64,000 bases of DNA from an uncultured Candidatus Saccharibacteria bacterium (GCA_964507275.1 CAZDPG010000001.1:188061-252060); one strand, 5' to 3'; counted from the first letter of the stretch, positions 1 to 29,623 are shown. Translations and numbers: made by a program. Notes: a model not told the origin generated them from the letters alone.

Positions 1-1767
1 ACTGACGCTACGGATGTGAACTTCACCTTCGGCTCTTCCTTCATCCTGCAAAAGAATGTTTCGGCAACCGTAGATATATACGCAGATGCCAAAACGACAA
101 CAGGAGCCGCATTCAGTAATAACGACACGGCAACAGTCTCTATCGGTCAGGGTTCGGCAAATGGTCAGGGCCAAGTCACGCTATCTACCATTGATGTACC
201 TACCTCGGCGGTTGTGGCTAACACAATAACAATTTCTGCCTCCTCACTTACATCAGCAAAATATTCAGGATACAGCAATCAGACCACGATTGCAGGCACA
301 AATAATGCCAGACTCGGCTCATTTACTCTTTCAACAGGTTCCATGGAAAGCGTGAATGTGAATACAATTACAGTAGCTCTTTCTGCAGACGAGTCTGCAA
401 CCATTACGGATCTCATGTTGAAGGACAACGCAACTGGCACGCAGATAGGCACGACAAAGGCGACACCTTCTACGAGCAATGCGTTCTCAGTCAACTTCAA
501 TATCGCAGCATCTGGGACGAAGGTTGTCGATGTCTATGGCAACATAAAGTCTGGTGCAAATGTTGGTCAATGGATTGCGACTGTTGTTGATGTGTCCGGG
601 ACAGGATCTGTGACTGGCAGTGCCATTAGTGGTGCAACTGCGACTGATCTTCAAACAATTACTATTGGTTCGGCTATTCTCACGGCTACAGTCGGAACAT
701 CGCCTGATAATGCGAATGTTATTGCAGGCTCTAGCATGGTAAAGGTCGGTTCGTTTGACTTCGCCGCGCAGTATTCTGGTTACACAATCGATAAGATTAA
801 GGTGAAGATTTCTGCGAACGCTGCGACTGCGGTCTCCTCAATTACCTTGAGATATCCGAATGCCAACGGTGTATCAACGGATACAGTGCAGTCTATTGTC
901 GGTTCCTCGGGCAGTCAGTCGCACGCAACGTCGACATTCACCGGCCTTACATTCTATGTCCCATCGGGCACAACAAAGAAGCTTGATGTGTACGTGAATT
1001 TGAGCACTATCCAGAACGATGGTGATTCGGGGAAGTCCGTATCGGTTGTGCTTGATGCTGACGAAGGGTTCCGAGCAACTGATTCTTCTGGCTCAACGAA
1101 GACATTACTTGCAAATTCTGATATTGCTTCAAATGATACAAGTGGAAAGGGTACGATGTATGTGAGGAAGTCCATTCCGACTCTTTCTGCGGTCGCACTT
1201 GATACCTCTACACTCTCTAATGGATCAAATAAGGTTCTTGGGCGTATGAAAATTACGGCAGATGCAGCCGGAGATATAAGTTGGAATAAACTTGTCTTTA
1301 CTGTTAATAAGACAGCAGCTCTGACTCTTGGAGCAACATCAACTATCGCACTCTGGCAGGGCCCAAGTCAGATCGCAGGCATCTTTGCCACAACAACTGG
1401 AAGCCACGAGGCACAGTTACAAGCGTTCACGACTTCGGCAACAAGTGGCGCGCTGGTATTCGTTCCAACGAGTGAACAGCAAGTATCTGCAGGTACATCA
1501 ATCACTTATGAGCTTCGTGGAACGGTTGGTGGTATCTCATCTGCCGGAGGATATTCATTTGATGTTTCAATTTGGAATCTTTCTACTTCCGCGACGACAG
1601 GTACGGCTTCAGAGATTGGCGTCACAGCAGTTATCGACCCGTCATTCACTTGGTCTGACAGGTCGTCTGTCGCTCTAGTTCATTCCCTGACGACCTCCGA
1701 CTGGACCAACGATTATCTCGTGAGAACTCTGCCTCTTACCGTCGGCAATCTCTCGGTATCGATCTAA
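1..1767 (+). CDS. Ser/Thr/Gly/Ala-rich secreted/surface repeat protein, 5' partial (open to window start)
   Basis: The reading frame is open from nt 1, and the first Met is at 16. Composition is extremely S/T/G/A-rich and beta-strand-like, with internal module repeats (e.g. SAKYSGYSNQT... near res 80 and AAQYSGYTIDK... near res 250). No catalytic motif. Typical of a surface/S-layer-like protein. Confidence 0.6.
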   Translation, partial: TDATDVNFTFGSSFILQKNVSATVDIYADAKTTTGAAFSNNDTATVSIGQGSANGQGQVTLSTIDVPTSAVVANTITISASSLTSAKYSGYSNQTTIAGTNNARLGSFTLSTGSMESVNVNTITVALSADESATITDLMLKDNATGTQIGTTKATPSTSNAFSVNFNIAASGTKVVDVYGNIKSGANVGQWIATVVDVSGTGSVTGSAISGATATDLQTITIGSAILTATVGTSPDNANVIAGSSMVKVGSFDFAAQYSGYTIDKIKVKISANAATAVSSITLRYPNANGVSTDTVQSIVGSSGSQSHATSTFTGLTFYVPSGTTKKLDVYVNLSTIQNDGDSGKSVSVVLDADEGFRATDSSGSTKTLLANSDIASNDTSGKGTMYVRKSIPTLSAVALDTSTLSNGSNKVLGRMKITADAAGDISWNKLVFTVNKTAALTLGATSTIALWQGPSQIAGIFATTTGSHEAQLQAFTTSATSGALVFVPTSEQQVSAGTSITYELRGTVGGISSAGGYSFDVSIWNLSTSATTGTASEIGVTAVIDPSFTWSDRSSVALVHSLTTSDWTNDYLVRTLPLTVGNLSVSI

Positions 1768-3026
1768 TGCATATGTATCGGCACAGACTTCTTATCGTCG
1801 TCGTAATCATTGGGTTGGTGGCTTTACCGTCTTTGGCTCTCGCCGCACCTGGTATTCCTGCGCAGTTTTATGGAACTGTGCAAAATGGATCAGGAACAGC
1901 ATCATCGGGTTTAACTGTTAATGCCCTCATAAACGGAATTGTGATTGCCACGACGACTACTCAGAGCGACGGTAGTTATGGCTCGTCACCGAATCTTCTT
2001 ATCATCTCAGACGCGAACGGGACGCTCGCAGGGACTACTATCACATTCAAAGTGAACGGTGTTGCCGTATCTCAGACAGCAACATTTGCAAACGCGTTGC
2101 TCACTCATCTCGACCTCGCCATCTCTAGTTCTGCTCAGGTACTTAGTGAAAACATAACCGTCAGTACAAGCCGTCCAGAGATTTTAGTTGGTACGAGCAA
2201 CATCACTAGCTCTACAATCACAATCCCTAGTAGTGTGACCAATGCAACGATCAACATATCTGCGATTACAACGAATACCGCGAATAGCACTACAGCGACT
2301 ATTCAGGCTCCAATGACTATTAACGCTTCTACGGCTATTGGGGCCGTGAATGTAGAAATACCAGCCGGCCTCCAAATAACGGCTGGTACTCCAACGTGGA
2401 ACGGAGTCATTAATGTTCCGCAGATAAAGGAAAATTCTACTGTTACGGCCACGCCAGACAGTGGGAATACAGCCGCTGTTTCTTCTGTTATTGAAATTGG
2501 CTATGGCGATACGAAATTAACCTTTAGTAAGGCTGTGCGAATAAAAATAGCCGGTCAGGCGGGCAAATATGTTGGGTATTCACGCGGTGGAGTGTTCACT
2601 ACAATTACAAATGTCTGCGGTGCTGATTCTCAAACAACTGGTGATGCTCTGTCCGCGGAAGGAGACTGTAAGATTAGTGTCGGTTCGGACATGATCATTT
2701 GGACCAAGCATTTTACGAATTTCGTCACATACACACAGACATCTATTCCTGCTTCAACACCTGCTCCATCAGGCGGTGGTGGTGGAGGGGGCGGAGGAGG
2801 AGGCTCGATAGCTACTACTGCTACGATAACTACCGCCACAACGACATTAAATGTAGTCAAAAAGGCAGATGTTAATATTGACGGTAAGGTGGACTTCTTA
2901 GACTTCAATTCGCTCATGGTGCATTGGGGTCAGTCGGGGGCGAGTGTTACCGGAGACTTTAATAGCGATAATATTGTGGATTTCCTCGACTTTAATATGC
3001 TTATGGTTAACTGGACTAAAATATGA
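1767..3026 (+). CDS. Secreted dockerin-containing protein (N-terminal signal peptide, CarboxypepD_reg-like beta-sandwich, Gly11 linker, C-terminal type-I dockerin)
   Basis: Signal peptide LLIVVVIIGLVALPSLALAAPG. The GTVQNGSGTASSGLTVN...SDGSYG segment resembles carboxypeptidase-regulatory-like domains. The C-terminus carries two Ca-binding dockerin repeats, DVNIDGKVDFLD and DFNSDNIVDFLD. A run of 11 Gly precedes the dockerin. Confidence 0.75.
   Translation: MHMYRHRLLIVVVIIGLVALPSLALAAPGIPAQFYGTVQNGSGTASSGLTVNALINGIVIATTTTQSDGSYGSSPNLLIISDANGTLAGTTITFKVNGVAVSQTATFANALLTHLDLAISSSAQVLSENITVSTSRPEILVGTSNITSSTITIPSSVTNATINISAITTNTANSTTATIQAPMTINASTAIGAVNVEIPAGLQITAGTPTWNGVINVPQIKENSTVTATPDSGNTAAVSSVIEIGYGDTKLTFSKAVRIKIAGQAGKYVGYSRGGVFTTITNVCGADSQTTGDALSAEGDCKISVGSDMIIWTKHFTNFVTYTQTSIPASTPAPSGGGGGGGGGGGSIATTATITTATTTLNVVKKADVNIDGKVDFLDFNSLMVHWGQSGASVTGDFNSDNIVDFLDFNMLMVNWTKI
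2772..2804 (+). repeat. (GGN)11 simple repeat encoding an 11-glycine linker
   Basis: ggc ggt ggt ggt gga ggg ggc gga gga gga ggc, in frame with the 1767 ORF. Confidence 0.8.
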
Positions 3027-3775
3027 AAAACTATATGAAAATTATCTCGGTTCTTGGTGTTTTCGCTCTGCTCACCCCGATGAGTGCGTTGGCGGCAAGC
3101 GTCTCACTATCACCGACAACGATGTCGATACACACGGGAGACACATTTAGCGTGTCTGTCACAGCAGACCCTGCTTCAACCAAACTCTATAGTGTCCGCG
3201 CCAATGTCTCTTTTGATCCGTCACTGGTTGAAATCACAAACTTCTCTTTTGCCAGTGCTTGGATGTCAATTGCACAGCCTGGCTACGATTCAGTCGACAA
3301 TTCAAACGGTATTCTCATCAAGGCGGCTGGTTATCCTGGCGGATTCGCTTCTGCGACGAAGCTCGGCACGATTACGTTCAAGGCAATCAAGACAGGTACG
3401 GCAACAATAAACAGTACGAATAGCTCGCTTCTTCTAGACGCGGTGAGTAAGAATCAAATTAGTGGTACACAAGGGAGTATCTCAGTCTCTATCACTTCAG
3501 CACCGACAATGTCCGTGAAGACGACACCTAAACCGACTACTGTTTCTCCAGCAAAAGCGAAAACACCTGTAGTCACATCTGTCGTCGAACCTATTGCGGA
3601 AGCGACCTCAACCACATCGACCACGATTGCTACAAGTTCACTGTTGGCTGCTGTTAACGGAGCTATCACATTCGGGACCGGAAGCCCGATTGTCTCCGCA
3701 ATACTTTCCGCTGTTGTGGTGCTTCTAGTTATCTACGGTCTCTATTACTACCGTTACTACCGCCGTAACTGGTAA
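3023..3775 (+). CDS. Membrane-anchored cohesin-domain protein (signal peptide, cohesin domain, S/T-rich stalk, C-terminal TM anchor)
   Basis: Signal peptide MKIISVLGVFALLTPMSALA. The FSVSVTADP...VSFDPSLVEI...GILIKAAGYPGGFASATKLGTITFKAIKTGTATIN block matches the cohesin fold pattern (..fDP.vLEi.. / G.fa.i.Fka.k.G). The C-terminus has a hydrophobic helix followed by YYRYYRRNW. The start overlaps the stop of the upstream dockerin gene (ATGA). Confidence 0.7.
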   Translation: MKNYMKIISVLGVFALLTPMSALAASVSLSPTTMSIHTGDTFSVSVTADPASTKLYSVRANVSFDPSLVEITNFSFASAWMSIAQPGYDSVDNSNGILIKAAGYPGGFASATKLGTITFKAIKTGTATINSTNSSLLLDAVSKNQISGTQGSISVSITSAPTMSVKTTPKPTTVSPAKAKTPVVTSVVEPIAEATSTTSTTIATSSLLAAVNGAITFGTGSPIVSAILSAVVVLLVIYGLYYYRYYRRNW

Positions 3776-3908
3776 TCTCTTCTGGGCGCAAAAGCTTTTT
3801 GCTCTCAGAAGTGGTAAATGGATTGAGGAAGACTTTTTGGAAACCTTTTCTATCTGACTCCCATTACGTGTATTTGACAAAGCTAGATTTTAAGCAGACC
3901 CTATAGGT

Positions 3909-5147
3909 ATGACAGCTCTCAAGAAAGGAGAGTATTTGAAACGCGAAACCGCGACTAAGGAGGTCTATTATTATTTAGATGAAAAAGAGGGAGTGGACGT
4001 GCTCAGTCGTGAAGTATTTAAAAAGAAACCCCTTGAAATCCATTACCCTTTCGGGCGTCAAGGACAACCTAAGTATCCATTCGTTCGTAGCGTCGAATTC
4101 CACGGCATATCACCCAACATTATTGGCGGGGTGTTCACAGCAACAAATTTTGGCCTTGGTTTTACGAAGAATTTAAATCCTGCTATTTACCAACTTGAGC
4201 ACTTCCCGCGCGTTAACAAGATTCTGATTTCCAGAACACTTCTTTCAAAGATTGACGGGGATAAGGCTATCTTCAATACTGCCGACCTGGAAAGTATTTT
4301 CCAATGGATAAAACCTCTTAAAGACTCGCAATCTGCTGAGCTTAAGAAGGTGGCCAATAATGCTCTTGCAAAAGTATTTCCCAGCAAATTTAAAGCTCAA
4401 AGCGATAGGTATACCAAGGGATTATTGAGTTTGTTTATAAAAAATAAAGAAATAACCTCGGAGAAACTTTCCAAAGAAGATGTTGGCAATGCTCTTAAGC
4501 TAATTCCCGATCATATAACTGAAGAAAGTCTATTTTATAAAACGGAAGAAAAGATCAATTTTATACGATTAAGTGCTGTGAAGAAGAAGTTTAAGAAATT
4601 GGTTGACCAGAAAACTGATAGCAGACAGCTTGAAGAACGGTGCCAAAAATTCTTTGCCGAAAATAATTGGATATTCTCCAACATACTTTCTGTACCTGTG
4701 GCATTTATGGCAGGGAAAGCCTATGTAGGAGGAAAGACGATCGAGAACAAGTCTGGTAAAGAGGCAGATTTTCTTTACAAAAATAACTTGACACAAAATG
4801 TCTTTGTAATTGAAATTAAGACCCCAAAGAAGAAAATAATTGACGCAAAGAAGCCGTATCGAAAACCAGATGTTTTTCCCTTAGGTAAAGAATTAACTGG
4901 AGGACTTGTTCAACTTCTCGATCAACGAGATTCCTTACAGAAAGAATTCTTTACTCTTGCAAAAGGAGGCGAATTTAAATCGTTCAATCCTAAGGGTTTG
5001 CTAGTGATAGGACGAATCAAAGACTTATCCAAACAGCAACTAAAATCTTTTGAACTTTTTCGTAGTAATTTACGGGATATCGAAATAATTACCTATGATG
5101 AATTGTTGGAGCGGACTGATTTGATACTTAAACAATTTGTAAAATAG
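3909..5147 (+). CDS. Shedu-like anti-phage defence protein: variable N-terminal domain plus C-terminal DUF4263 (SduA-type) PD-(D/E)xK nuclease domain
   Basis: The C-terminal half follows the DUF4263 pattern: ...NNWIF... D287 (EADFLY) ... VIEIKTP (E302-x-K304) ... GLVQLLDQ ... LLVIGR ... IEIITYDELL at the C-terminus. AT-rich codon usage. No SD; a TATAGG sits just upstream of the ATG. Confidence 0.55.
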   Translation: MTALKKGEYLKRETATKEVYYYLDEKEGVDVLSREVFKKKPLEIHYPFGRQGQPKYPFVRSVEFHGISPNIIGGVFTATNFGLGFTKNLNPAIYQLEHFPRVNKILISRTLLSKIDGDKAIFNTADLESIFQWIKPLKDSQSAELKKVANNALAKVFPSKFKAQSDRYTKGLLSLFIKNKEITSEKLSKEDVGNALKLIPDHITEESLFYKTEEKINFIRLSAVKKKFKKLVDQKTDSRQLEERCQKFFAENNWIFSNILSVPVAFMAGKAYVGGKTIENKSGKEADFLYKNNLTQNVFVIEIKTPKKKIIDAKKPYRKPDVFPLGKELTGGLVQLLDQRDSLQKEFFTLAKGGEFKSFNPKGLLVIGRIKDLSKQQLKSFELFRSNLRDIEIITYDELLERTDLILKQFVK

Positions 5148-5172
5148 GGTGCCGAAGAAATAATATCCGCAT

Positions 5173-5574
5173 ATGAACGATATACATATCAAATATAAGG
5201 AGAAACCACCTGACGAATTGATTCTCCAGTTTGAGAAACGTATCGATTACTACCTTTCAGGAATTGGAGCCAAGACCAAAGTAATTCTATACGAACACTC
5301 GTTTGATATGCACTCATTCATAAACGGCGTGGAGATGGATATTGAGAGACACTGGATTAACCACTTTCTCGTTTCCACTCCCGAAATTGCAAATTTCGAG
5401 GTACGGATGTTTGAGTCCGGTATTGGAAGTAATTGGAGAGAAACAGCATGGTATGAAGCGCACGAGATCCAAAACCGACTCTATACTCATATCGGAAGAA
5501 ATGCAGGGCATCCACAAGACGGCGATCCTTACTGGCAACTTTGGGAAAAACTAAAGGAAGACGAAGGCCGATGA
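5173..5574 (+). CDS. Hypothetical 133-aa protein, tightly linked (26 nt) downstream of the Shedu-like gene
   Basis: Clean AT-rich ORF with the same strand and composition as the upstream gene. No recognisable motif. A plausible operon partner. Confidence 0.45.
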   Translation: MNDIHIKYKEKPPDELILQFEKRIDYYLSGIGAKTKVILYEHSFDMHSFINGVEMDIERHWINHFLVSTPEIANFEVRMFESGIGSNWRETAWYEAHEIQNRLYTHIGRNAGHPQDGDPYWQLWEKLKEDEGR

Positions 5575-5609
5575 ACCAAAAGCACACCTCATCAAATATA
5601 AAACGCGTC

Positions 5610-5852
5610 TCAAGGAATAAAATTGACTGCGTTTTGTGCCGCTTCTTCTTGTGCAGGTTGTATCTGCTCACCCCAGCAAACTGCAACATCCCAGCGAATC
5701 GGCCAATGGAAGATACAGCTTGTAACAAAACTCCACAAAAATACAACGATAAATGTTGATACAAAAACAACAGCGGCAAATACCCACTGAAATTTCTCAA
5801 AATCCGTCATTTTCTTAGAACGGCTATATCGATATTTTTTATATCTCGCCAT
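5610..5852 (-). CDS. Small predicted membrane protein (80 aa, one TM helix)
   Basis: Hydrophobic segment WVFAAVVFVSTFIVVFLWSFV. Starts 3 nt after the stop of the DUF3761 gene on the same strand. Confidence 0.3.
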   Translation of the reverse strand: MARYKKYRYSRSKKMTDFEKFQWVFAAVVFVSTFIVVFLWSFVTSCIFHWPIRWDVAVCWGEQIQPAQEEAAQNAVNFIP

Positions 5853-5855
5853 ACC

Positions 5856-6278
5856 TTAGAGCCATTCTGCTACTCCTCCATGGTGGGAACAGGTGCCTCG
5901 TCTGTTCTGGCTGAAACTGCAAGTACCATCTCTGCACTCGGCTGAGGCTCCTATCGATGAGCAGCTAGAGGGCGAATACGCTGGAGAGTGAACCTGCTTT
6001 CCATCTACGTTCGTGTAGTAGTTATCGTTGGATAAGGCAGAAGCAGAAGGCTGTGGCTGGGTTATCTGCTTTACGGGAGCAGGCGCGGAAACTTGCTGGC
6101 TGGGCACCACGGGCTGTACAGAGGGTAACTTGGCTTCTACGGCCGCCGCAGGCTGTACAGGAGATTGTTGTGTAGGATCAGCCGAAATGGCGCTACCTAT
6201 GACTAGAGAGGCCACCAATACAAGCGGGATCAAATACCTCTTTTTCTTATACCAAGGCCGTGCTGAAATCGGCTCCAT
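5856..6278 (-). CDS. Membrane-anchored DUF3761-domain protein (N-terminal TM, Pro/Gln-rich linker, C-terminal CRDGTCS...RRGTCSHHGGV motif)
   Basis: The C-terminus ...SAECRDGTCSFSQNRRGTCSHHGGVAEWL matches the DUF3761 signature (GxCSxHGGV). N-terminal TM helix LIPLVLVASLVIGSAI. Confidence 0.55.
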   Translation of the reverse strand: MEPISARPWYKKKRYLIPLVLVASLVIGSAISADPTQQSPVQPAAAVEAKLPSVQPVVPSQQVSAPAPVKQITQPQPSASALSNDNYYTNVDGKQVHSPAYSPSSCSSIGASAECRDGTCSFSQNRRGTCSHHGGVAEWL

Positions 6279-6312
6279 GGCCGCACCCTACTCTTTCGTC
6301 TATAATTAGCAA

Positions 6313-6810
6313 ATGGGGAAAATTGTTCTACTGAGTGGAATTCCTGCGTCAGGGAAATCCACACATGGTAAGTGGTTAGAGACAGAGATGGGCTGTGTCT
6401 ATTGGGACTTAGAACACGAAACACTGGAAGAAGCTGGGACAAGGGCTGGATTGTATCTAGGTACAAATGCCGACCTTGGAAGTTTGCTGGCGGTGGCGAA
6501 GAGAATATCTAAGACCATTGTCATTGACTGGGGATTCCCACCCGACGTATGTCTCAATACCGTCCGATGGCTTTCTGAAAACGGAGTAGAAATCTGGTGG
6601 TTCGACGGAGACCGAGAGGCAGCAAGAATTTCGTTCTTAAGAAGAAGTCCAGAGCTTGAACAGGCACTAGATATACAAATGGAGAAGATAGTAAGATTTG
6701 ATACTGAGATAAAAGACCTATTTGAGGATCATCAAATAAACTCGGTTACGCTTGGCCCTAAATATTTATCACACAAGAAAATCTACAAAACATTGTTTCC
6801 AGAGAACTAA
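6313..6810 (+). CDS. Small P-loop NTPase / AAA_33-like kinase-fold protein
   Basis: Walker A GIPASGKST at residues 9-17. A hhhhD Walker B-like TIVIDWGF. 165 aa, AT-rich. Confidence 0.6.
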   Translation: MGKIVLLSGIPASGKSTHGKWLETEMGCVYWDLEHETLEEAGTRAGLYLGTNADLGSLLAVAKRISKTIVIDWGFPPDVCLNTVRWLSENGVEIWWFDGDREAARISFLRRSPELEQALDIQMEKIVRFDTEIKDLFEDHQINSVTLGPKYLSHKKIYKTLFPEN

Positions 6811-6896
6811 AGCCTCTGTAGTTGAGGGAGGTTGAAGAATTCAAACGTTTTAGATACATCCAAAGTTCGGAACTCGTACCACCGTGCGAGCAAAAT

Positions 6897-6925
6897 GAAA
6901 AAGCGCCACAAGGGCGTTTTTTCAT
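6897..6925. terminator. Short GC hairpin with flanking A-run/T-run, a putative bidirectional intrinsic terminator between convergent genes
   Basis: aaaaa-GCGCC-acaa-GGGCG-tttttt, sited between the + gene ending at 6810 and the - gene ending at 6952. Confidence 0.4.
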
Positions 6926-6951
6926 TTCTATACCAAACAGCGGCGCTGACT

Positions 6952-7245
6952 TTACTTTCCCTCCATCAGTCTTTTGAAACCTAGGGCGAGCAATATGAGA
7001 CCGAGAAGAAAGATGAAATGGTGTGTGGTCTCCAGAGTAGACGCGCTCATAGCCAGTACATCAGGGTCAACCGTCTCGATGATTTGAGAAAAGCCGATAA
7101 CCACGATGCCGTATCCAATCTTGGTTAAAGACTCACCTATAAGCCCGCCATATCCTTTTAATTTGAAGAGGATCCATAGTGCCAAAAACACTATTACTAG
7201 ATCCAATAGTATTGTCATGATTTCCATTGCAATATTGTAATCCAT
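6952..7245 (-). CDS. Small membrane protein (97 aa, ~3 TM helices)
   Basis: Hydrophobic helices ILLDLVIVFLALWILF, IGYGIVVIGFSQII and FIFLLGLILLALGF. AT-rich. Confidence 0.4.
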   Translation of the reverse strand: MDYNIAMEIMTILLDLVIVFLALWILFKLKGYGGLIGESLTKIGYGIVVIGFSQIIETVDPDVLAMSASTLETTHHFIFLLGLILLALGFKRLMEGK

Positions 7246-7363
7246 TTATAGAGATATACACGAAGCAAACTCGAACATCCCCAGGAAATTTAAAGCAGGG
7301 CATATTTCAGCAGCTTCCGCACCTTGATAAAGGGGGGCAGGATATCCGTGATATCATGAAGCT

Positions 7364-7672
7364 ATGAGTGAGAAACCAGGGATGAAGCGCAGTGGCGCAT
7401 TCGAATCGTATTTAGGGCATGTGCAACACGAGGCCCGGATGGATACTCCCGAAACGAGGAAGGAACACGCTCTGCGACTGCTCGCAGAGGTTCACGAAGA
7501 CTTGAGTGAGGAGAAGGGCACCCTTTCGCGAGAGGAGGTGGCCGCACTCCTCGCGAAGCTTGATATCGCGGAGGAGGCGACAGGCGATTTCTTCATAAAG
7601 GCCTCAGCGCAGACATACCGGAACGATATCTTTGAACGCTATCCAGAGAGCAAGCCGGAATCAAGAGAGTAA
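7364..7672 (+). CDS. Hypothetical acidic 102-aa protein
   Basis: ORF ending 3 nt before the HD-domain gene. High-GC codon usage with a periodic third-position GC bias. Confidence 0.4.
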   Translation: MSEKPGMKRSGAFESYLGHVQHEARMDTPETRKEHALRLLAEVHEDLSEEKGTLSREEVAALLAKLDIAEEATGDFFIKASAQTYRNDIFERYPESKPESRE

Positions 7673-7674
7673 CT

Positions 7675-8787
7675 ATGTTCCACGAAGAATCCATCGAGCG
7701 CTCTCATATCACTGCTGAGGCAGCGGCCGCAGAAGCTGTCCAGATAGCCGGGGAGGGGAACTACGCCACTATCATTGAGACGCTACGCGAACGAAATCTG
7801 CTTGAAAAAGAAAAGAGTCGCGTGGAACGCGAATATGAGCTCCATGAGATTCCATTTCTGACTGAGCGCGATCGGGAGATGTTTACCGTGCTCGACCTCT
7901 ACGACCCGTCGACCGCGCATCACTGCCTCGAGACGTATCGGATCGCGCGCGGGAAGATAGAGAAAGAAATCATGCCGGGCGTATCATTCGCACGCTTGCT
8001 CGAAAAGCATGAAGAGGTGACGACGGACCAGTTCTACCGCGCCTGCCTGTTCCACGACATCGGCAAGGTGGAAGTACCACGGGCCGTGATTCGCCATCGG
8101 ATGGATGAGGGGCACATGCTCGAATGCATGCACCATGTCTTCCATATGCTGTATCACGACGGCAAGATTCCCGCATGGCTTGACCTCAAAGAAGACGCTA
8201 CCGATCTTGAGATAGATGAGGCGTTTACCAAACAGCACTCGCTTCGTTGCATCCATCTGGTCGCCGCGCGCGAACTGCTCTCCCCAGAGGAACTCTCCGA
8301 AGTCGAGCGCTTCGGCTATACGGGGGATGAGACACTCATGGATATCATCAAGACGCACGAAATGCGCTCAGGCAAAATCCTTGAGAGTGCTGGGTACCCG
8401 ATCGAGTCGCGGCTGGCCTCGCTGCATCACAACTATGGAAAGAAGACGCCGGAGCACCCAATTGCGGTCAGCGTGCTCCACATGAGCGTCGATCTCGCGG
8501 ACATGCTCCATATCGCTGATATCGTACAGGCGCTTTCAGCAGAGCGCTCCTATAAGAAAGCGTTCAGCATACCGAAAGCTATGCACATCATCGCAGAGCA
8601 CGCGCAGGAGGGAAGAATCTCGCTGCTTGCCGCGTATCTCTGGCTCGTCGATGAACTGCGGGTCTATGAAGCCGCACCCAAGGAAGCGCTCGCAGAAGGG
8701 CAGCGGGATCAGGATGCTCCGCATCTCTCGGCCGTCCAGGCGTTCGTCGCGGAAGCAGCGGAGCGTCTCGGGACGCTATCAATATAA
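7675..8787 (+). CDS. HD-domain phosphohydrolase
   Basis: H...HD metal-binding motifs: HHCLETYRIA, ACLFHDIGKVEVP and HHVFHMLYHDGK. Confidence 0.65.
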   Translation: MFHEESIERSHITAEAAAAEAVQIAGEGNYATIIETLRERNLLEKEKSRVEREYELHEIPFLTERDREMFTVLDLYDPSTAHHCLETYRIARGKIEKEIMPGVSFARLLEKHEEVTTDQFYRACLFHDIGKVEVPRAVIRHRMDEGHMLECMHHVFHMLYHDGKIPAWLDLKEDATDLEIDEAFTKQHSLRCIHLVAARELLSPEELSEVERFGYTGDETLMDIIKTHEMRSGKILESAGYPIESRLASLHHNYGKKTPEHPIAVSVLHMSVDLADMLHIADIVQALSAERSYKKAFSIPKAMHIIAEHAQEGRISLLAAYLWLVDELRVYEAAPKEALAEGQRDQDAPHLSAVQAFVAEAAERLGTLSI

Positions 8788-27278: not shown

Positions 27279-28549
27279 AAAAACTCCTTAAATTTATGAT
27301 TGCTTCGGTGCTCGCCCTGCTTGCACGTGCTGTCGTGCACCGGTATCACCCGCGCATCGTCATGGTGACCGGTTCGGTAGGGAAGACGTCTACAAAGGAT
27401 GCAGTCGCCGCGGTGCTCTCGGCACGCTTCCTTGTCCGTAAGAGCGAAAAGAGTTTCAATAGCGAATTTGGTGTCCCGTTCACCATACTTGGAGCTGACA
27501 ATCCGTGGGGCGATCCTTTTGCATGGGTCTCGCTCGTCAAACGCTCGCTCGCGCTTCTCGTCCTGCCGAATCAGTATCCGAATATGCTCGTGCTCGAAGT
27601 GGGAGCGGATCGTCCTGGGGATCTCGCTCGGATACTGCGTATCGCGACGCCAGCTGCCGTCGTTGTCACGCAGCTACCTGACGTGCCAGTGCATGTGGAA
27701 GCGTATGCTTCGCCCGAGGCGGTGCGAGAAGAAGAGTTTTCTCCCGCGTACGCGCTTCCTGCGGGAGCACCGCTCATCATCTCGGCTGATGATCTATACG
27801 CACTAGACGCGGCGCGTCGTTCTCCCGCACGTGTCATCTCGTACGGTGTGGCAGAAAACGCTTCGGTACGCGTCAGCAGTATCGTTTTCTCTGAAATGGA
27901 AGGAGTTGTCACGGGGATGTCTGCCGATGTGACGGAGGAGGGTACCTCTTCGAAGATCTCCGTGAAGGGGTCTGTCGGGGAGGTACAAATCCTTCCTGTT
28001 GCCGCCGCCCTCGCGGTTGCCGTCGCATTTGACATACCTCGTGCGCGCGCCATTGAGGCGCTCGAAGCGTATGAGCCTCCGCCAGGACGCGGACGTCTGC
28101 TTACGGGGAAGGGAGACTCGATCATCATTGATGATTCGTACAACTCCTCACCGGTTGCCGTTGAGCACGCGCTCAAAGCTTTGAAAGCGTTTCCGCATGC
28201 AAAGCGCCGTATCGCAGTCCTCGGAGACATGCTTGAGCTCGGGAGATATTCGGTCACGGAGCATGAGAGGATCGCTCGTGTCGCAGGAGAATCGGCGGAT
28301 GTTATCGTTACCGTCGGTATCCGCGCTCGTGCGTTTGCCGCTGTGCCGAAGAAGGCTGAAGTCGTGCAGTTCGATAACGCCCGCGCAGCTGCTGTTGCGC
28401 TTCGGGATGTGGTCGAGTCGGGTGACGTGATTCTCGTAAAAGGGTCGCAATCGGTTCGCATGGAACGCATCGTGAAAGCGTTGCTCAATGACCGAGCAGA
28501 TGCCGCGCGACTCGTTCGCCAGGAAAAGAAGTGGCGGGAGAAGGAATAA
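27275..28549 (+). CDS. murF: UDP-N-acetylmuramoyl-tripeptide--D-alanyl-D-alanine ligase
   Basis: Mur ligase P-loop GSVGKTSTKD. C-terminal VLGDMLELG...H and VKGSQSVRME motifs characteristic of MurF rather than MurE. Confidence 0.75.
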   Translation: MKKLLKFMIASVLALLARAVVHRYHPRIVMVTGSVGKTSTKDAVAAVLSARFLVRKSEKSFNSEFGVPFTILGADNPWGDPFAWVSLVKRSLALLVLPNQYPNMLVLEVGADRPGDLARILRIATPAAVVVTQLPDVPVHVEAYASPEAVREEEFSPAYALPAGAPLIISADDLYALDAARRSPARVISYGVAENASVRVSSIVFSEMEGVVTGMSADVTEEGTSSKISVKGSVGEVQILPVAAALAVAVAFDIPRARAIEALEAYEPPPGRGRLLTGKGDSIIIDDSYNSSPVAVEHALKALKAFPHAKRRIAVLGDMLELGRYSVTEHERIARVAGESADVIVTVGIRARAFAAVPKKAEVVQFDNARAAAVALRDVVESGDVILVKGSQSVRMERIVKALLNDRADAARLVRQEKKWREKE

Positions 28550-28655
28550 GATGTGACGCTAACGATACCAGTCAAAACTCTTAGTAGAGCAATTGCAAAC
28601 AATCAGTAAAGTAATTGTTAAGTTTGCATCTCTAGAGAGGTGTGGATTAAGTTAA

Positions 28656-29453
28656 GTGTGGTATGCTCAGACAATCATGCGACGAACCCTTGCTGTAGCC
28701 TATACGCTAATCGCTCTTTTAATTGTTCTTCCGTTTTCGTTTCTTCCGCTCATCATGGGCGCAGAGAGCGTTGCTTCAGGCCCTCTCTTTTACAAGCTTC
28801 TTTACTACCTGTTTTACTTGCTACCGATTCTTGTAGTGGCAAGCATCGGTTATGTTTGGAAATACCTGGCTCAAGGCAAAGAACAGGATGGAAAACTCCC
28901 CTTAGCAATTCGTGCGATTATAGGACTCGTCGTTGTTTTTGTCGTGTTGTATGGGCTTGGGTACGGGGCTGCGTGGGGCAAAGTACTATTTGAAAAAAGC
29001 GGACTGATTACGTGGGTACACCCTTTATTCTCAGAAGAGTATAGCGACTCGCAATTATATAGTGCCGCATTCAATAACGGTGACCGGGGAACCTGTGACA
29101 AAATCAAAGACAGCACATTGAAAGCACGATGTTACATGAATACGAACGCTACAGATATGAGCGCGTCGGACTGCCTTGCAGAGAACCATCGAGATGGGAG
29201 TCAGCCCCTGACCACGGGCGAACGGTCGTGTATCACTACTTTCATATACCAAAAAGCGCTTACCGATGCTCTCTTGGACTGCACTGTTCCAGTGCTCAAA
29301 GAATATCAAAAGGTGTGTACAGAACTCCAGTCTTTTCAGGAGCTAAGGATTAAAAACAGCTCATCCGCATGTTCCAGCTTGCTGAAATCGGGACATCTAG
29401 ATAGATCGACTACTGAAAAATTTATTGCTTGCCTCGATAGAGAGGAATCGTAA
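28656..29453 (+). CDS. Hypothetical polytopic membrane protein with a Cys-rich C-terminal extracytoplasmic domain (AT-rich)
   Basis: About 4 TM helices, then an 8-Cys domain. Low-GC segment 28.56-29.46 kb. Confidence 0.45.
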   Translation: MWYAQTIMRRTLAVAYTLIALLIVLPFSFLPLIMGAESVASGPLFYKLLYYLFYLLPILVVASIGYVWKYLAQGKEQDGKLPLAIRAIIGLVVVFVVLYGLGYGAAWGKVLFEKSGLITWVHPLFSEEYSDSQLYSAAFNNGDRGTCDKIKDSTLKARCYMNTNATDMSASDCLAENHRDGSQPLTTGERSCITTFIYQKALTDALLDCTVPVLKEYQKVCTELQSFQELRIKNSSSACSSLLKSGHLDRSTTEKFIACLDREES

Positions 29454-29490
29454 TTGAGGATGCAATGTGCCGGTAGACTGTTTTGTTTTG

Positions 29491-29562
29491 TGACCTCACG
29501 GGGAATCGAACCCCGATTTGATCCGTGAGAGGGATCTGTCCTAGCCGTTAGACGATGAGGCC
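29491..29562 (-). tRNA. tRNA-Glu (anticodon CUC), 72 nt, CCA not encoded
   Basis: Manual fold. Acceptor GGCCTCA/TGAGGTC. D-arm GTCT-AACGGCTA-GGAC. Anticodon arm GATCC-CUCUCAC-GGATC, with U33, the anticodon at 34-36 and A37. T-arm CGGGG-TTCGATT-CCCCG. Confidence 0.8.
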
Positions 29563-29623
29563 GTCTGTAGATGATTTATAACAGAAAGTTTGAAGAGATG
29601 GAAGCGAAAAATAATAAGGCGAT

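Follow-up and report, generated by a model that had tools for sequence, protein, structure and literature searches.

A Shedu nuclease gene in a probable mosaic genomic island beside tRNA-Asn of a groundwater CPR bacterium

Introduction

How far does the foreign DNA at this locus extend, and by what route did it arrive? The locus lies in a stretch of 64,000 nucleotides (hereafter the window) from a groundwater CPR bacterium of the Paceibacteria/Parcubacteria lineage with a GC content of ~55%. A sequence-only reading of the window had placed a low-GC insertion of 3.5 kb between the stop codon of a cohesin gene (3775) and ~7.33 kb, with a Shedu-like gene and five further AT-rich ORFs inside, and with no integrase, tRNA gene or direct repeat at its borders. 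The flagged 3.5 kb does look foreign, and it carries a genuine gene for an anti-phage nuclease of the Shedu type. It probably makes up the last third, counted from the tRNA, of a mosaic genomic island of ~12.46 kb beside a tRNA-Asn gene, which spans 967 to ~13428 of the source-contig locus (L001), corresponding to positions -5125 to ~7336 of the window.

Extent and composition of the island

In 1-kb windows from 7400 to 64000, which serve as the reference, the GC content is 54.8% (sd 2.8, minimum 45.6). By the same measure it falls to 36-40% at 3.9-5.9 kb (z -5 to -7) and to 43% at 6.4-7.4 kb (z -4), with tetranucleotide distances of z 5-11 in both intervals. GC3 is 0.33-0.51 for the ORFs in 3776-7330 against 0.55-0.67 for seven genes to the right. 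The deviation that sliding-window GC and tetranucleotide plots had been expected to reveal is thus present, and the sharp shift proposed earlier holds for the low GC and for the right side. It does not hold for 3776 as the native edge. Positions 1-3775 are also atypical (GC 46-48%, z -2.3 to -3.0; tetranucleotide z 3.6-6.2; GC3 0.42-0.47), and on the source contig the anomaly extends 5.1 kb past the left end of the window, stopping exactly at the 3' end of tRNA-Asn(GUU). Position 3776 is therefore an internal step and not the boundary between native and foreign DNA.

Low GC and tetranucleotide deviation are unbroken from L001 ~965 to window ~7330, and over the whole ~12.4 kb the z values range from -2.3 to -6.8 for GC and from 3.6 to 10.7 for tetranucleotides. 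GC3 is low in every island gene, including those for the cohesin, dockerin-like and Big_5 proteins and the recombinase described below. At least five compositional blocks can be distinguished (~40%, 47%, 37%, 50-53% and 42% GC). The island is not an assembly artefact, since fourteen loci, drawn from several samples and three assembly sources, cover parts of it at 99.9-100% identity.

The left boundary: tRNA-Asn and a serine recombinase

The tRNA gene at the left end is interrupted by a group I intron, which Rfam places at L001 627-919. Removal of L001 692-926 by splicing gives a 73-nt tRNA-Asn(GTT), and both of its exons (L001 658-691 and 927-965) match the intron-less tRNA-Asn of two relatives, L020 (97%) and L030 (100%); the identity to both stops at L001 966. 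The minus strand at L001 953-2527 encodes an intact large serine recombinase of phage type (524 aa). Its stop codon lies within the tRNA, and the last 12-13 nt of the gene overlap the 3' end of tRNA-Asn. The protein has the N-terminus YARVSSREQ, carries Resolvase (PF00239, 9e-24), Recombinase (PF07508, 1e-15) and Zn_ribbon_recom (PF13408, 6e-7) domains, and matches the integrase family phrog_95 of PHROGs (4e-82). The adjoining 129-aa ORF is a truncated fragment of a phage replication-initiator gene, of which it matches the N-terminal third (phrog_11233, 7e-27).

Recombinase and fragment together are the remnant of an integrative element or, at most as a remnant, of a prophage. Among ten small or accessory island ORFs compared with PHROGs, only these two matched, and no phage structural, packaging or lysis gene was found. 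The three surface-protein genes and sduA were covered by Pfam, which assigned to them Big_5, a weak dockerin, cohesin and SduA_C only. No relatives of the recombinase, SduA or the 133-aa protein encoded next to it were found on viral contigs.

Both the tRNA gene and the integrase gene sit 3.6-5.4 kb to the left of window position 1. The earlier statement that neither exists is correct inside the window only, and is an artefact because the window edge cut off both. In contrast, the lack of a direct-repeat boundary was confirmed: no repeat found in a search of the island pairs its two ends, the tRNA 3' end has no second copy with up to 3 mismatches, and local alignment gave noise level. Since neither an att-like repeat nor a displaced tRNA 3' fragment was found at the island, it is position that points to integration by this recombinase. 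Serine recombinases need a 2-bp core only and leave no direct repeats. The missing repeat is thus expected of such an enzyme, and decay is also compatible with it. Synteny of the left flank with relatives was looked for and was not shown. By the proposed mechanism, the serine recombinase would have integrated a circular element at an attB site that coincides with the 3' end of tRNA-Asn or lies just behind it, and later acquisitions, replacements and decay would have produced the several compositional layers.

The right boundary and variation among strains

On the right, conserved sequence resumes at ~7337-7340, at the end of a junction zone of 7246-7339. BLASTN aligns the closest relatives from 7340 (L018) and 7322 (L019) onward, so that the edge of ~7330 chosen by eye was accurate to within ~10 nt. 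The first native genes, which mark the boundary from outside the island, encode a 102-aa protein (p102) and a 370-aa HD-domain protein (7364-8787, plus strand; GC 55-56%, GC3 0.62-0.67). This pair is kept in L018, L019 and L020, and the p102-HD-grx genes are conserved in relatives with HD proteins 89% and 78% identical.

Island proteins are absent from the loci L015-L021, and the genes of the flagged block are absent at the orthologous locus of relatives whose HD proteins are 89%, 78%, 68% and 65% identical. An empty site was found in L030 (HD protein 78% identical), where tRNA-Asn (43-115) is followed by a hairpin, grx (185-424) and the HD gene (from 461), instead of the order of cohesin directly before HD that had been expected for an uninterrupted locus. 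The empty site is seen on one short contig only (1446 nt), on which the order of grx and HD differs and p102 is missing, so that this locus has been rearranged as well. In L020, the interval from tRNA-Asn to HD holds 7.4 kb of unrelated genes, the first 1.5 kb of low GC. The tRNA-Asn to HD interval is a variable slot. Because the block's genes are absent at the relatives' orthologous loci and one relative has an empty site, the evidence supports horizontal acquisition of the block, as accessory DNA and not as part of the core. The sequence-only reading was right to prefer an island over core low-GC genes, which would have been found at the same locus in relatives; its insertion grows from 3.5 kb to ~12.46 kb, with the cohesin, dockerin-like and Big_5 genes included.

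The island is mosaic and differs between strains. In a strain 98.6% identical (L028), homology is confined to the sequence right of window 6919; left of this point the strain is unrelated and has host-like GC. The five compositional blocks and this divergence indicate that the island in its present form was not acquired as one unit. It is possible, if rather doubtful, that recombination or another vehicle brought in the Shedu block (~3.8-6.9 kb) separately, as an islet nested in or appended to an older tRNA-Asn island and unrelated to the serine recombinase 9 kb away. GC steps are sharp at ~3.8 kb (47 to 37%), ~5.6 kb and ~6.5 kb, and L028 diverges exactly in the hairpin after the P-loop gene. 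The arrangement of SduA and DUF3761 genes recurs in another locus (L022) without cohesin genes or a recombinase, and there too the SduA gene is AT-rich relative to its host (35% vs 44% GC). However, no repeats, recombinase or transposase bound the block, its left neighbours are foreign too, and L028 covers 538 nt left of 6919, so that what varies in that strain may just as well be the entire island. A separate islet would refine the reading of a tRNA-linked island more than contradict it.

Genes carried by the island

Under the reading of a single tRNA-linked mosaic, the cargo in the window begins with three surface-protein genes on the plus strand, and the cohesin gene among them is cargo and not native flank. 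Positions 1-1767 encode the C-terminal 583 codons of a 971-aa Big_5 protein (PF13205, 1.5e-12; GC 47.6%, GC3 0.43), whose gene begins beyond the left end of the window, at L001 4944, and has no homologue at the relatives' loci. It is followed at 1767-3026 by the gene for a 419-aa secreted protein with a hydrophobic N-terminal segment and a weak dockerin-like C-terminus (Dockerin_1, 21.9 bits, just under the cutoff of 22.9; GC3 0.42), and at 3023-3775 by that for a 250-aa protein with a cohesin domain (PF00963, 5.4e-9) and a membrane anchor at its C-terminus (GC 48%, GC3 0.47), which is not present at the relatives' loci either. The cargo also includes a LOOT small RNA.

The gene sduA (3909-5147, plus strand; 37% GC) encodes 412 aa, in which a helical linker connects ~120 aa of beta-rich N-terminal domain with a DUF4263 PD-(D/E)xK domain at the C-terminus. 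Its assignment to Shedu was upheld by Pfam (SduA_C, PF14082, 94.8 bits vs a cutoff of 27), by the PADLOC SduA models (best 8.8e-64), by a match to B. cereus Shedu (PDB 8TI8, 5.5e-27) with the D...EIK motif aligned, and by fold. The segment ADFLY...FVIEIKTP aligns with the B. cereus motif, in which the catalytic-mutant chain 8TI9 has A for this E. Among 40 SduA homologues, D287, E302 and T305 are invariant and K304 nearly so (90% or more). Foldseek comparison of the SduA model with 8TI8/8TI9 gave E values of 2e-13 to 2e-9 and TM (target) of 0.66-0.81, for a model with a mean pLDDT of 79 and low confidence in the nuclease-domain loop of residues 264-284. By sequence and modelled fold, SduA is a true Shedu nuclease whose D…ExK motif is intact, and its gene is the sole recognisable defence function of the island.

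Shedu has been reported to occur often on transposable elements and prophages (bioRxiv 10.1101/2023.08.10.552793). Related SduA genes lie near other large serine recombinases, at ~1 kb in L024 and ~4 kb in L025. The L022 gene, whose product is 72% identical, begins ~410 nt after a tRNA-Glu. Mechanisms of Shedu have been published (bioRxiv 10.1101/2023.08.10.552793; 10.1101/2023.08.10.552762). If it works like the enzymes studied from B. cereus and E. coli, SduA would form a tetramer whose N-terminal domains restrain the nuclease until a nucleic-acid signal of infection, for instance free DNA ends, frees it to cut invading DNA.

The inventory of five further ORFs was correct, and their description as AT-rich fails for the DUF3761 gene. 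The first (5173-5574, plus strand), 25 nt downstream of sduA, encodes a 133-aa acidic soluble protein of an orphan family with 59 cluster representatives at E<=1e-3, all of ~125-140 aa. It has no Pfam, PDB, PHROG, PADLOC or phage match, and its family is absent from the three closest SduA loci. Although it had been called a partner, on these comparisons it is not a conserved one. Next are an 80-aa ORF (66 aa in some pipelines) with one TM-like segment and no family match (5610-5852, minus strand) and a 140-aa DUF3761 protein (5856-6278, minus strand; PF12587, 6.6e-23) with an N-terminal TM segment, a Pro/Gln-rich spacer and a Cys-rich C-terminal domain, whose gene has a host-like GC of 53%. 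A 47%-identical DUF3761 gene stands in the same place and orientation in L022, ~1 kb after SduA.

The P-loop protein of 165 aa (6313-6810, plus strand; Walker-A GIPASGKST) had been likened to AAA_33 or zeta. It passes no Pfam threshold, those of AAA_33 and Zeta_toxin included, and reaches only 18.4 bits for AAA_18 (cutoff 29.4), with some AAA_33 among its 87 homologues. Its AlphaFold2 model (pLDDT 96) is closest in the PDB to UMP-CMP, adenylate and shikimate kinases (TM 0.5-0.6), so that the modelled fold is nucleoside-monophosphate-kinase-like, in the range of shikimate and gluconate kinases. An inverted repeat with 15-nt arms and flanking A/T runs (6893-6927) follows between two convergent genes; by eye this hairpin resembles a bidirectional terminator, a consensus scan for terminators did not report it, and the L028 breakpoint at 6919 falls in it. 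The last ORF (6952-7245, minus strand; 42% GC) encodes a 97-aa multi-TM protein. An identical ORF is present in L028 and the gene is absent from the 89% and 78% relatives, which makes it an older island layer. No PADLOC-DB v2 model matched any of these five ORFs, and they are accessory genes with no demonstrable defence role.

It is accordingly unlikely that SduA, the 133-aa protein, the P-loop kinase-like protein and the small membrane proteins form a multi-gene defence or abortive-infection module, as the sequence-only reading had suggested for part of them; its defence-annotation check recovered SduA and none of the other five. In each of the four SduA loci examined, the start of an ORF on the same strand falls close to the sduA stop, from 8 nt before it to 25 nt after it; E. 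coli has a Shedu of two genes, KELShedu (bioRxiv 10.1101/2025.09.13.674623); and a P-loop homologue (L038) adjoins an MmeI-like methyltransferase and a PLD-SNF2 helicase. However, the ORFs that follow sduA in these loci (133, 294, 347 and 124 aa) show no relation to each other, the profile of the 133-aa family finds nothing in the other SduA loci, the KELShedu partner is upstream and WYL-like, neither of which holds here, another P-loop homologue (L036) lies amid housekeeping-type genes, and the strands alternate, which excludes one operon. A long shot on the same four loci is that the Parcubacterial Shedu clade may carry a hypervariable, translationally coupled gene in a downstream slot, as an exchangeable modulator, immunity or sensor partner. 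If true, Shedu would here have a modular architecture of two parts that has yet to be described. The DUF3761 secreted protein also recurs near SduA.

It is highly improbable that the low-GC genes belong to the native core of this lineage and have an atypical composition because of their function: the 97-aa gene common to two strains and the host-like DUF3761 gene would fit, but the relatives' loci lacking the block and the L030 empty site already contradict it, and a tRNA and a recombinase flank the block.

Comparison with known elements

Like other tRNA-linked islands, the mosaic island proposed here has an atypical composition, starts at a tRNA 3' end with the integrase gene tRNA-proximal, and carries surface and defence cargo, with an empty site in one relative and other contents at the slot in another. 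Classical islands of this kind have tyrosine integrases and a duplicated tRNA 3' end. Here, a large serine recombinase takes the place of the tyrosine integrase, neither direct repeats nor a duplicated tRNA fragment flank the island, and the target tRNA carries a group I intron. The recombinase shares the Resolvase, Recombinase and zinc-ribbon architecture and the N-terminal catalytic-serine motif with large serine recombinases (phiC31/Bxb1-type, SCCmec Ccr, XisF). Its likeness to CcrB and XisF is weak and at the subfamily level (~106 bits), far under the equivalog cutoffs for CcrA, CcrB, CcrC and XisF (375-900 bits). Unlike in elements of such recombinases, no recombination directionality factor was identified and phage structural genes are lacking.

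KELShedu (E. coli KELA/KELB) likewise combines a DUF4263 nuclease with a small, tightly linked neighbour gene. KELA is encoded upstream and binds DNA, whereas the neighbour here is downstream, of an orphan family and not conserved beside related SduA genes. To B. cereus B4264 SduA (8TI8/8TI9), the island protein has ~30% identity and the structural match given above over 200-260 residues, while its N-terminal ~220 residues have no sequence match to solved Shedu proteins; the N-domain of 8TI8 is disordered, so that its fold class is not comparable. The host here is a CPR bacterium. With the B. cereus and E. coli SduA the island protein shares the C-terminal DUF4263/SduA_C domain with D...E-x-K conserved and the overall plan of a beta-rich N-terminal domain, helical linker and nuclease, in ~400 aa encoded by a single gene on a mobile element.

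Composition and extent of the island

The low-GC block at 3776-7330 of the window belongs to a mosaic genomic island of conventional type, linked to a tRNA and bearing an integrase, of which it forms the distal part. The island extends from window -5125 to ~7336, which corresponds to positions 967 to ~13428 of L001, the source-contig locus starting 6092 nt left of the window. The sequence-only reading had described a low-GC accessory region, and both GC and codon third positions confirm it. The host background has a mean GC of 54.8% (sd 2.8, minimum 45.6; 1-kb windows from 7400 to 64000), and the genome is at ~55%. sduA (3909-5147, + strand) and the 133-aa ORF behind it (5173-5574, +) are at 36-40%. 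GC is back up to ~50% in the DUF3761 stretch (53% in the DUF3761 gene alone; 5856-6278, - strand), and is 41-43% again from there up to ~7.3 kb. GC3 is 0.33-0.51 in the six ORFs of the block, against 0.55-0.67 in seven genes to the right. All six ORFs match their earlier description; the remaining three encode an 80-aa protein (5610-5852, -), a P-loop protein (6313-6810, +) and a 97-aa protein (6952-7245, -).

The right edge, previously placed at ~7330, agrees with the onset of BLASTN homology at 7340 and 7322 in the two closest relatives (L018 and L019, respectively). The left edge at 3776 is not a boundary. Window 1-3775, where Big_5, dockerin-like and cohesin proteins are encoded, is likewise anomalous in GC (46-48%), GC3 (0.42-0.47) and tetranucleotide deviation (z 3.6-6.2). 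Thus, the accessory region is real, but the 3.5 kb originally delimited are only the distal part of a ~12.5-kb island reaching outside the window. At least five compositional blocks are found in it, with GC of ~40%, 47%, 37%, 50-53% and 42%. The lowest GC elsewhere in the window (45.6-47%) is at 28400-29600, where tRNA-Glu(CTC) (29490-29562, -) is the immediate neighbor of a Cys-rich membrane ORF of 265 aa (28656-29453, +); this may be another small tRNA-adjacent islet.

The tRNA-Asn gene and serine recombinase at the left end

In L001, low GC persists leftward to ~965 and then steps up to 54-57%. At this end, a group I intron (Rfam, 70 bits) is located within a tRNA gene, and excision of L001 692-926 (window -5400 to -5166) yields a 73-nt tRNA-Asn(GTT). 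The intron is 235 nt long, has no ORF, and is inserted between anticodon positions 35 and 36, with the 5' exon ending in U and the intron in G. Both exons are 97% identical to the tRNA-Asn of one relative (L020) and 100% to that of another (L030), each of which lacks the intron, and identity with these two loci stops at L001 966. A large serine recombinase of 524 aa is oriented towards tRNA-Asn, and its stop codon (L001 953-955) falls within the T-arm of the tRNA. It consists of Resolvase, Recombinase and Zn-ribbon domains, has the N-terminus YARVSSREQ, and matches the phrog_95 integrase at 4e-82. Hence the integrase and the tRNA that the sequence-only reading had reported missing are both present, just left of the window.

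The recombinase is followed by a 129-aa fragment that matches a phage replication initiator over its N-terminal third (phrog_11233, 7e-27). Several tiny ORFs come next, then a LOOT small RNA (L001 4384-4505, window -1708 to -1587; 86 bits versus a gathering score of 46.4), a 112-aa membrane ORF, and the gene for the 971-aa Big_5 protein, which enters the window with its C-terminal part. The LOOT small RNA thus sits within the island, with a phage-like module on one side and the Big_5 gene on the other.

The absence of a direct-repeat boundary was noted before and stands: repeat search, pattern search with 3 mismatches and local alignment detected neither att-type direct repeats nor a displaced tRNA 3' fragment. 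The missing repeats fit a serine recombinase, because such an enzyme requires just a 2-bp core. As neither signature was found, insertion of the island at tRNA-Asn by this recombinase is inferred from the position of its gene.

The tRNA-Asn site in related genomes

Related loci were obtained as contigs of homologues of the 370-aa HD-domain (HD) protein, whose gene, together with the 102-aa gene p102, is the first native sequence right of the island (7364-8787, +). Among GTDB species genomes, the HD protein found only three distant loci, none of them syntenic. In L018 (HD 89% identical), a p102 homologue and then Cyt-b5 and DoxX genes lie upstream of HD. In L019 (78%), the gene p96 is followed by unrelated small genes and a PG_binding protein, and in L020 (68%), p94 lies upstream of HD, and unrelated genes fill the interval up to tRNA-Asn at a distance of 7.4 kb. 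L030 (78%) provides an empty site, in which tRNA-Asn (43-115), a hairpin, the gene grx (185-424) and HD (from 461) directly follow one another. The 89% and 78% relatives retain the small protein, HD and grx, and no island protein from the recombinase through the 97-aa ORF has a tblastn match in any relative locus. Given the differing contents of the relatives and the empty site of L030, tRNA-Asn and HD enclose a hypervariable slot, occupied here by ~12.46 kb of foreign-looking DNA. The sequence-only reading had proposed, as a sign of insertion, related genomes in which cohesin is directly followed by HD. The block is absent from the related loci, but the empty site reads tRNA-Asn, grx, HD. In L020, the first 1.5 kb past the intron-less tRNA-Asn (2255-3695) has a GC of 43% against 56%, a sign that this tRNA may have been an insertion target more than once. 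This stretch encodes two unannotated or Kre9_KNH-like proteins.

Variation among strains and assemblies

A strain of 98.6% identity (L028) has the 97-aa ORF, p102 and HD in common with the genome of the window. Left of window 6919, its sequence (L028 1-538) is unrelated and host-like (GC 52-54%), and codes for another, distinct 133-aa ORF, for which none of the retrieved loci has a homologue. The breakpoint is at a hairpin (6893-6927) that separates the P-loop gene from the 97-aa gene, the two being convergent. Since sharing stops at 6919, the 97-aa gene is an older layer, and all sequence to the left of this point appears to be strain-variable.

Two loci from one JGI sample (3300009285), L010 (1-757) and L035 (7893-9511), break inside sduA at window ~4799-4830. 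Beyond the break, one continues into 301-aa lipoprotein-like and PduL-like genes, and the other into a Cas2/PaaX-like gene; these foreign ends are mutually unrelated, and a gap of 30 nt separates the break points. This could reflect an insertion that interrupts sduA in a subpopulation, or else two chimeric assemblies. An assembly artefact for the island as a whole is ruled out, since the 14 retrieved loci show 99.9-100% mutual identity across the island parts covered. Identical SduA and HD proteins are encoded on many contigs from groundwater metagenomes (ENA, JGI, Logan), the longest reaching 660 kb. Independent assemblies (MEGAHIT ERZ909575; Logan SRR5855240) break at window 7026 and 7071 (L001 13118 and 13163), within the 97-aa gene and with 44 nt unassembled between, and further contig breaks occur at L001 937, in the tRNA 3' exon, and at 4933. 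These break points hint at population heterogeneity.

Neighbors of sduA

The 133-aa ORF, initially regarded as a partner of sduA, belongs to a real but small orphan family of 59 cluster representatives, in which W..A..IQ...Y...DPYW.LW motifs are conserved. It has no match in Pfam, NCBIfam, PHROGs, PADLOC, a PDB profile search or phage tblastn; a weak 'ocr' match of one family member (E 0.004) was taken as noise. At the three nearest SduA loci, the coupled downstream gene differs each time (294, 347 and 124 aa), no two of these genes being related and none having a relationship to the 133-aa family, which rules out a conserved Shedu partner. In the related loci L022 (7517-11299), L024 (3-4876) and L025 (2501-9630), a same-strand ORF starts 8 nt before to 4 nt after the sduA stop. 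That this Shedu clade is characterized by a variable downstream 'slot' gene, translationally coupled to sduA, is improbable.

The DUF3761 gene has a 47% identical counterpart in L022, in the same position and orientation downstream of SduA. The P-loop protein and the small membrane proteins had been put forward as additional defence or abortive-infection modules, a proposal that found no support: none of the five non-Shedu ORFs matches a PADLOC model (HMM library, without system rules). The P-loop protein has 87 homologues, some with AAA_33, and its very confident model (pLDDT 96) is nearest to UMP-CMP, adenylate, shikimate and gluconate kinases (TM 0.5-0.6). Family, PADLOC and fold comparisons thus do not support a zeta-toxin or a defence ATPase. 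Homologue contexts are mixed, being housekeeping-like in L036 and defence-island-like in L038. In the latter (1-6519), an MmeI/Eco57I-type methyltransferase and a PLD-SNF2 helicase are encoded ~2 kb, or a few small ORFs, upstream of a 68%-identical homologue. A 165-aa gene upstream of HD in another relative (L021) was rejected as a P-loop homologue.

SduA and comparison with known Shedu systems

SduA was recognized by Pfam (94.8 bits), PADLOC (8.8e-64) and PDB 8TI8 (5.5e-27). Across 40 homologues, D287, E302 and T305 are invariant and K304 is nearly so (>=90%). The Shedu-like assignment therefore holds, and from these matches, the conserved residues and the structural model SduA appears to be a bona fide Shedu nuclease. 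Its closest homologues (65-76% identical; 913 at E<=1e-10) are on Parcubacteria-type contigs. Viral-contig scans with the recombinase, SduA and the 133-aa protein were empty.

CPR/Parcubacteria have genomes of <1 Mb and are believed to be defence-poor. They do carry canonical Shedu nucleases, located in variable slots that bear an integrase or adjoin a tRNA, and such slots vary even among 98.6%-identical strains. Here, the unit of horizontal transfer is likely the 12.5-kb tRNA-Asn island with its serine integrase, not a 3.5-kb orphan islet. These observations are of value for cataloguing CPR mobilomes and defence repertoires, and leave current understanding unchallenged.

The AlphaFold2 model of SduA (mean pLDDT 79) resembles the nuclease and linker of B. 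cereus Shedu with a TM (target) of 0.66-0.81. A beta-rich domain, modelled with confidence, makes up the N-terminal ~120 residues and leads into a long helix, as in the general type-1 Shedu layout. According to published work, the N-domain of Shedu proteins gates the nuclease, and in the E. coli protein it clamps free ends of DNA (bioRxiv 10.1101/2023.08.10.552793, 10.1101/2023.08.10.552762). Other large serine recombinases occur ~1 kb (L024) and ~4 kb (L025) from related SduA genes, and the SduA gene of L022 begins ~410 nt past tRNA-Glu. This proximity is in line with the published placement of Shedu, often on transposable elements and prophages (bioRxiv 10.1101/2023.08.10.552793).
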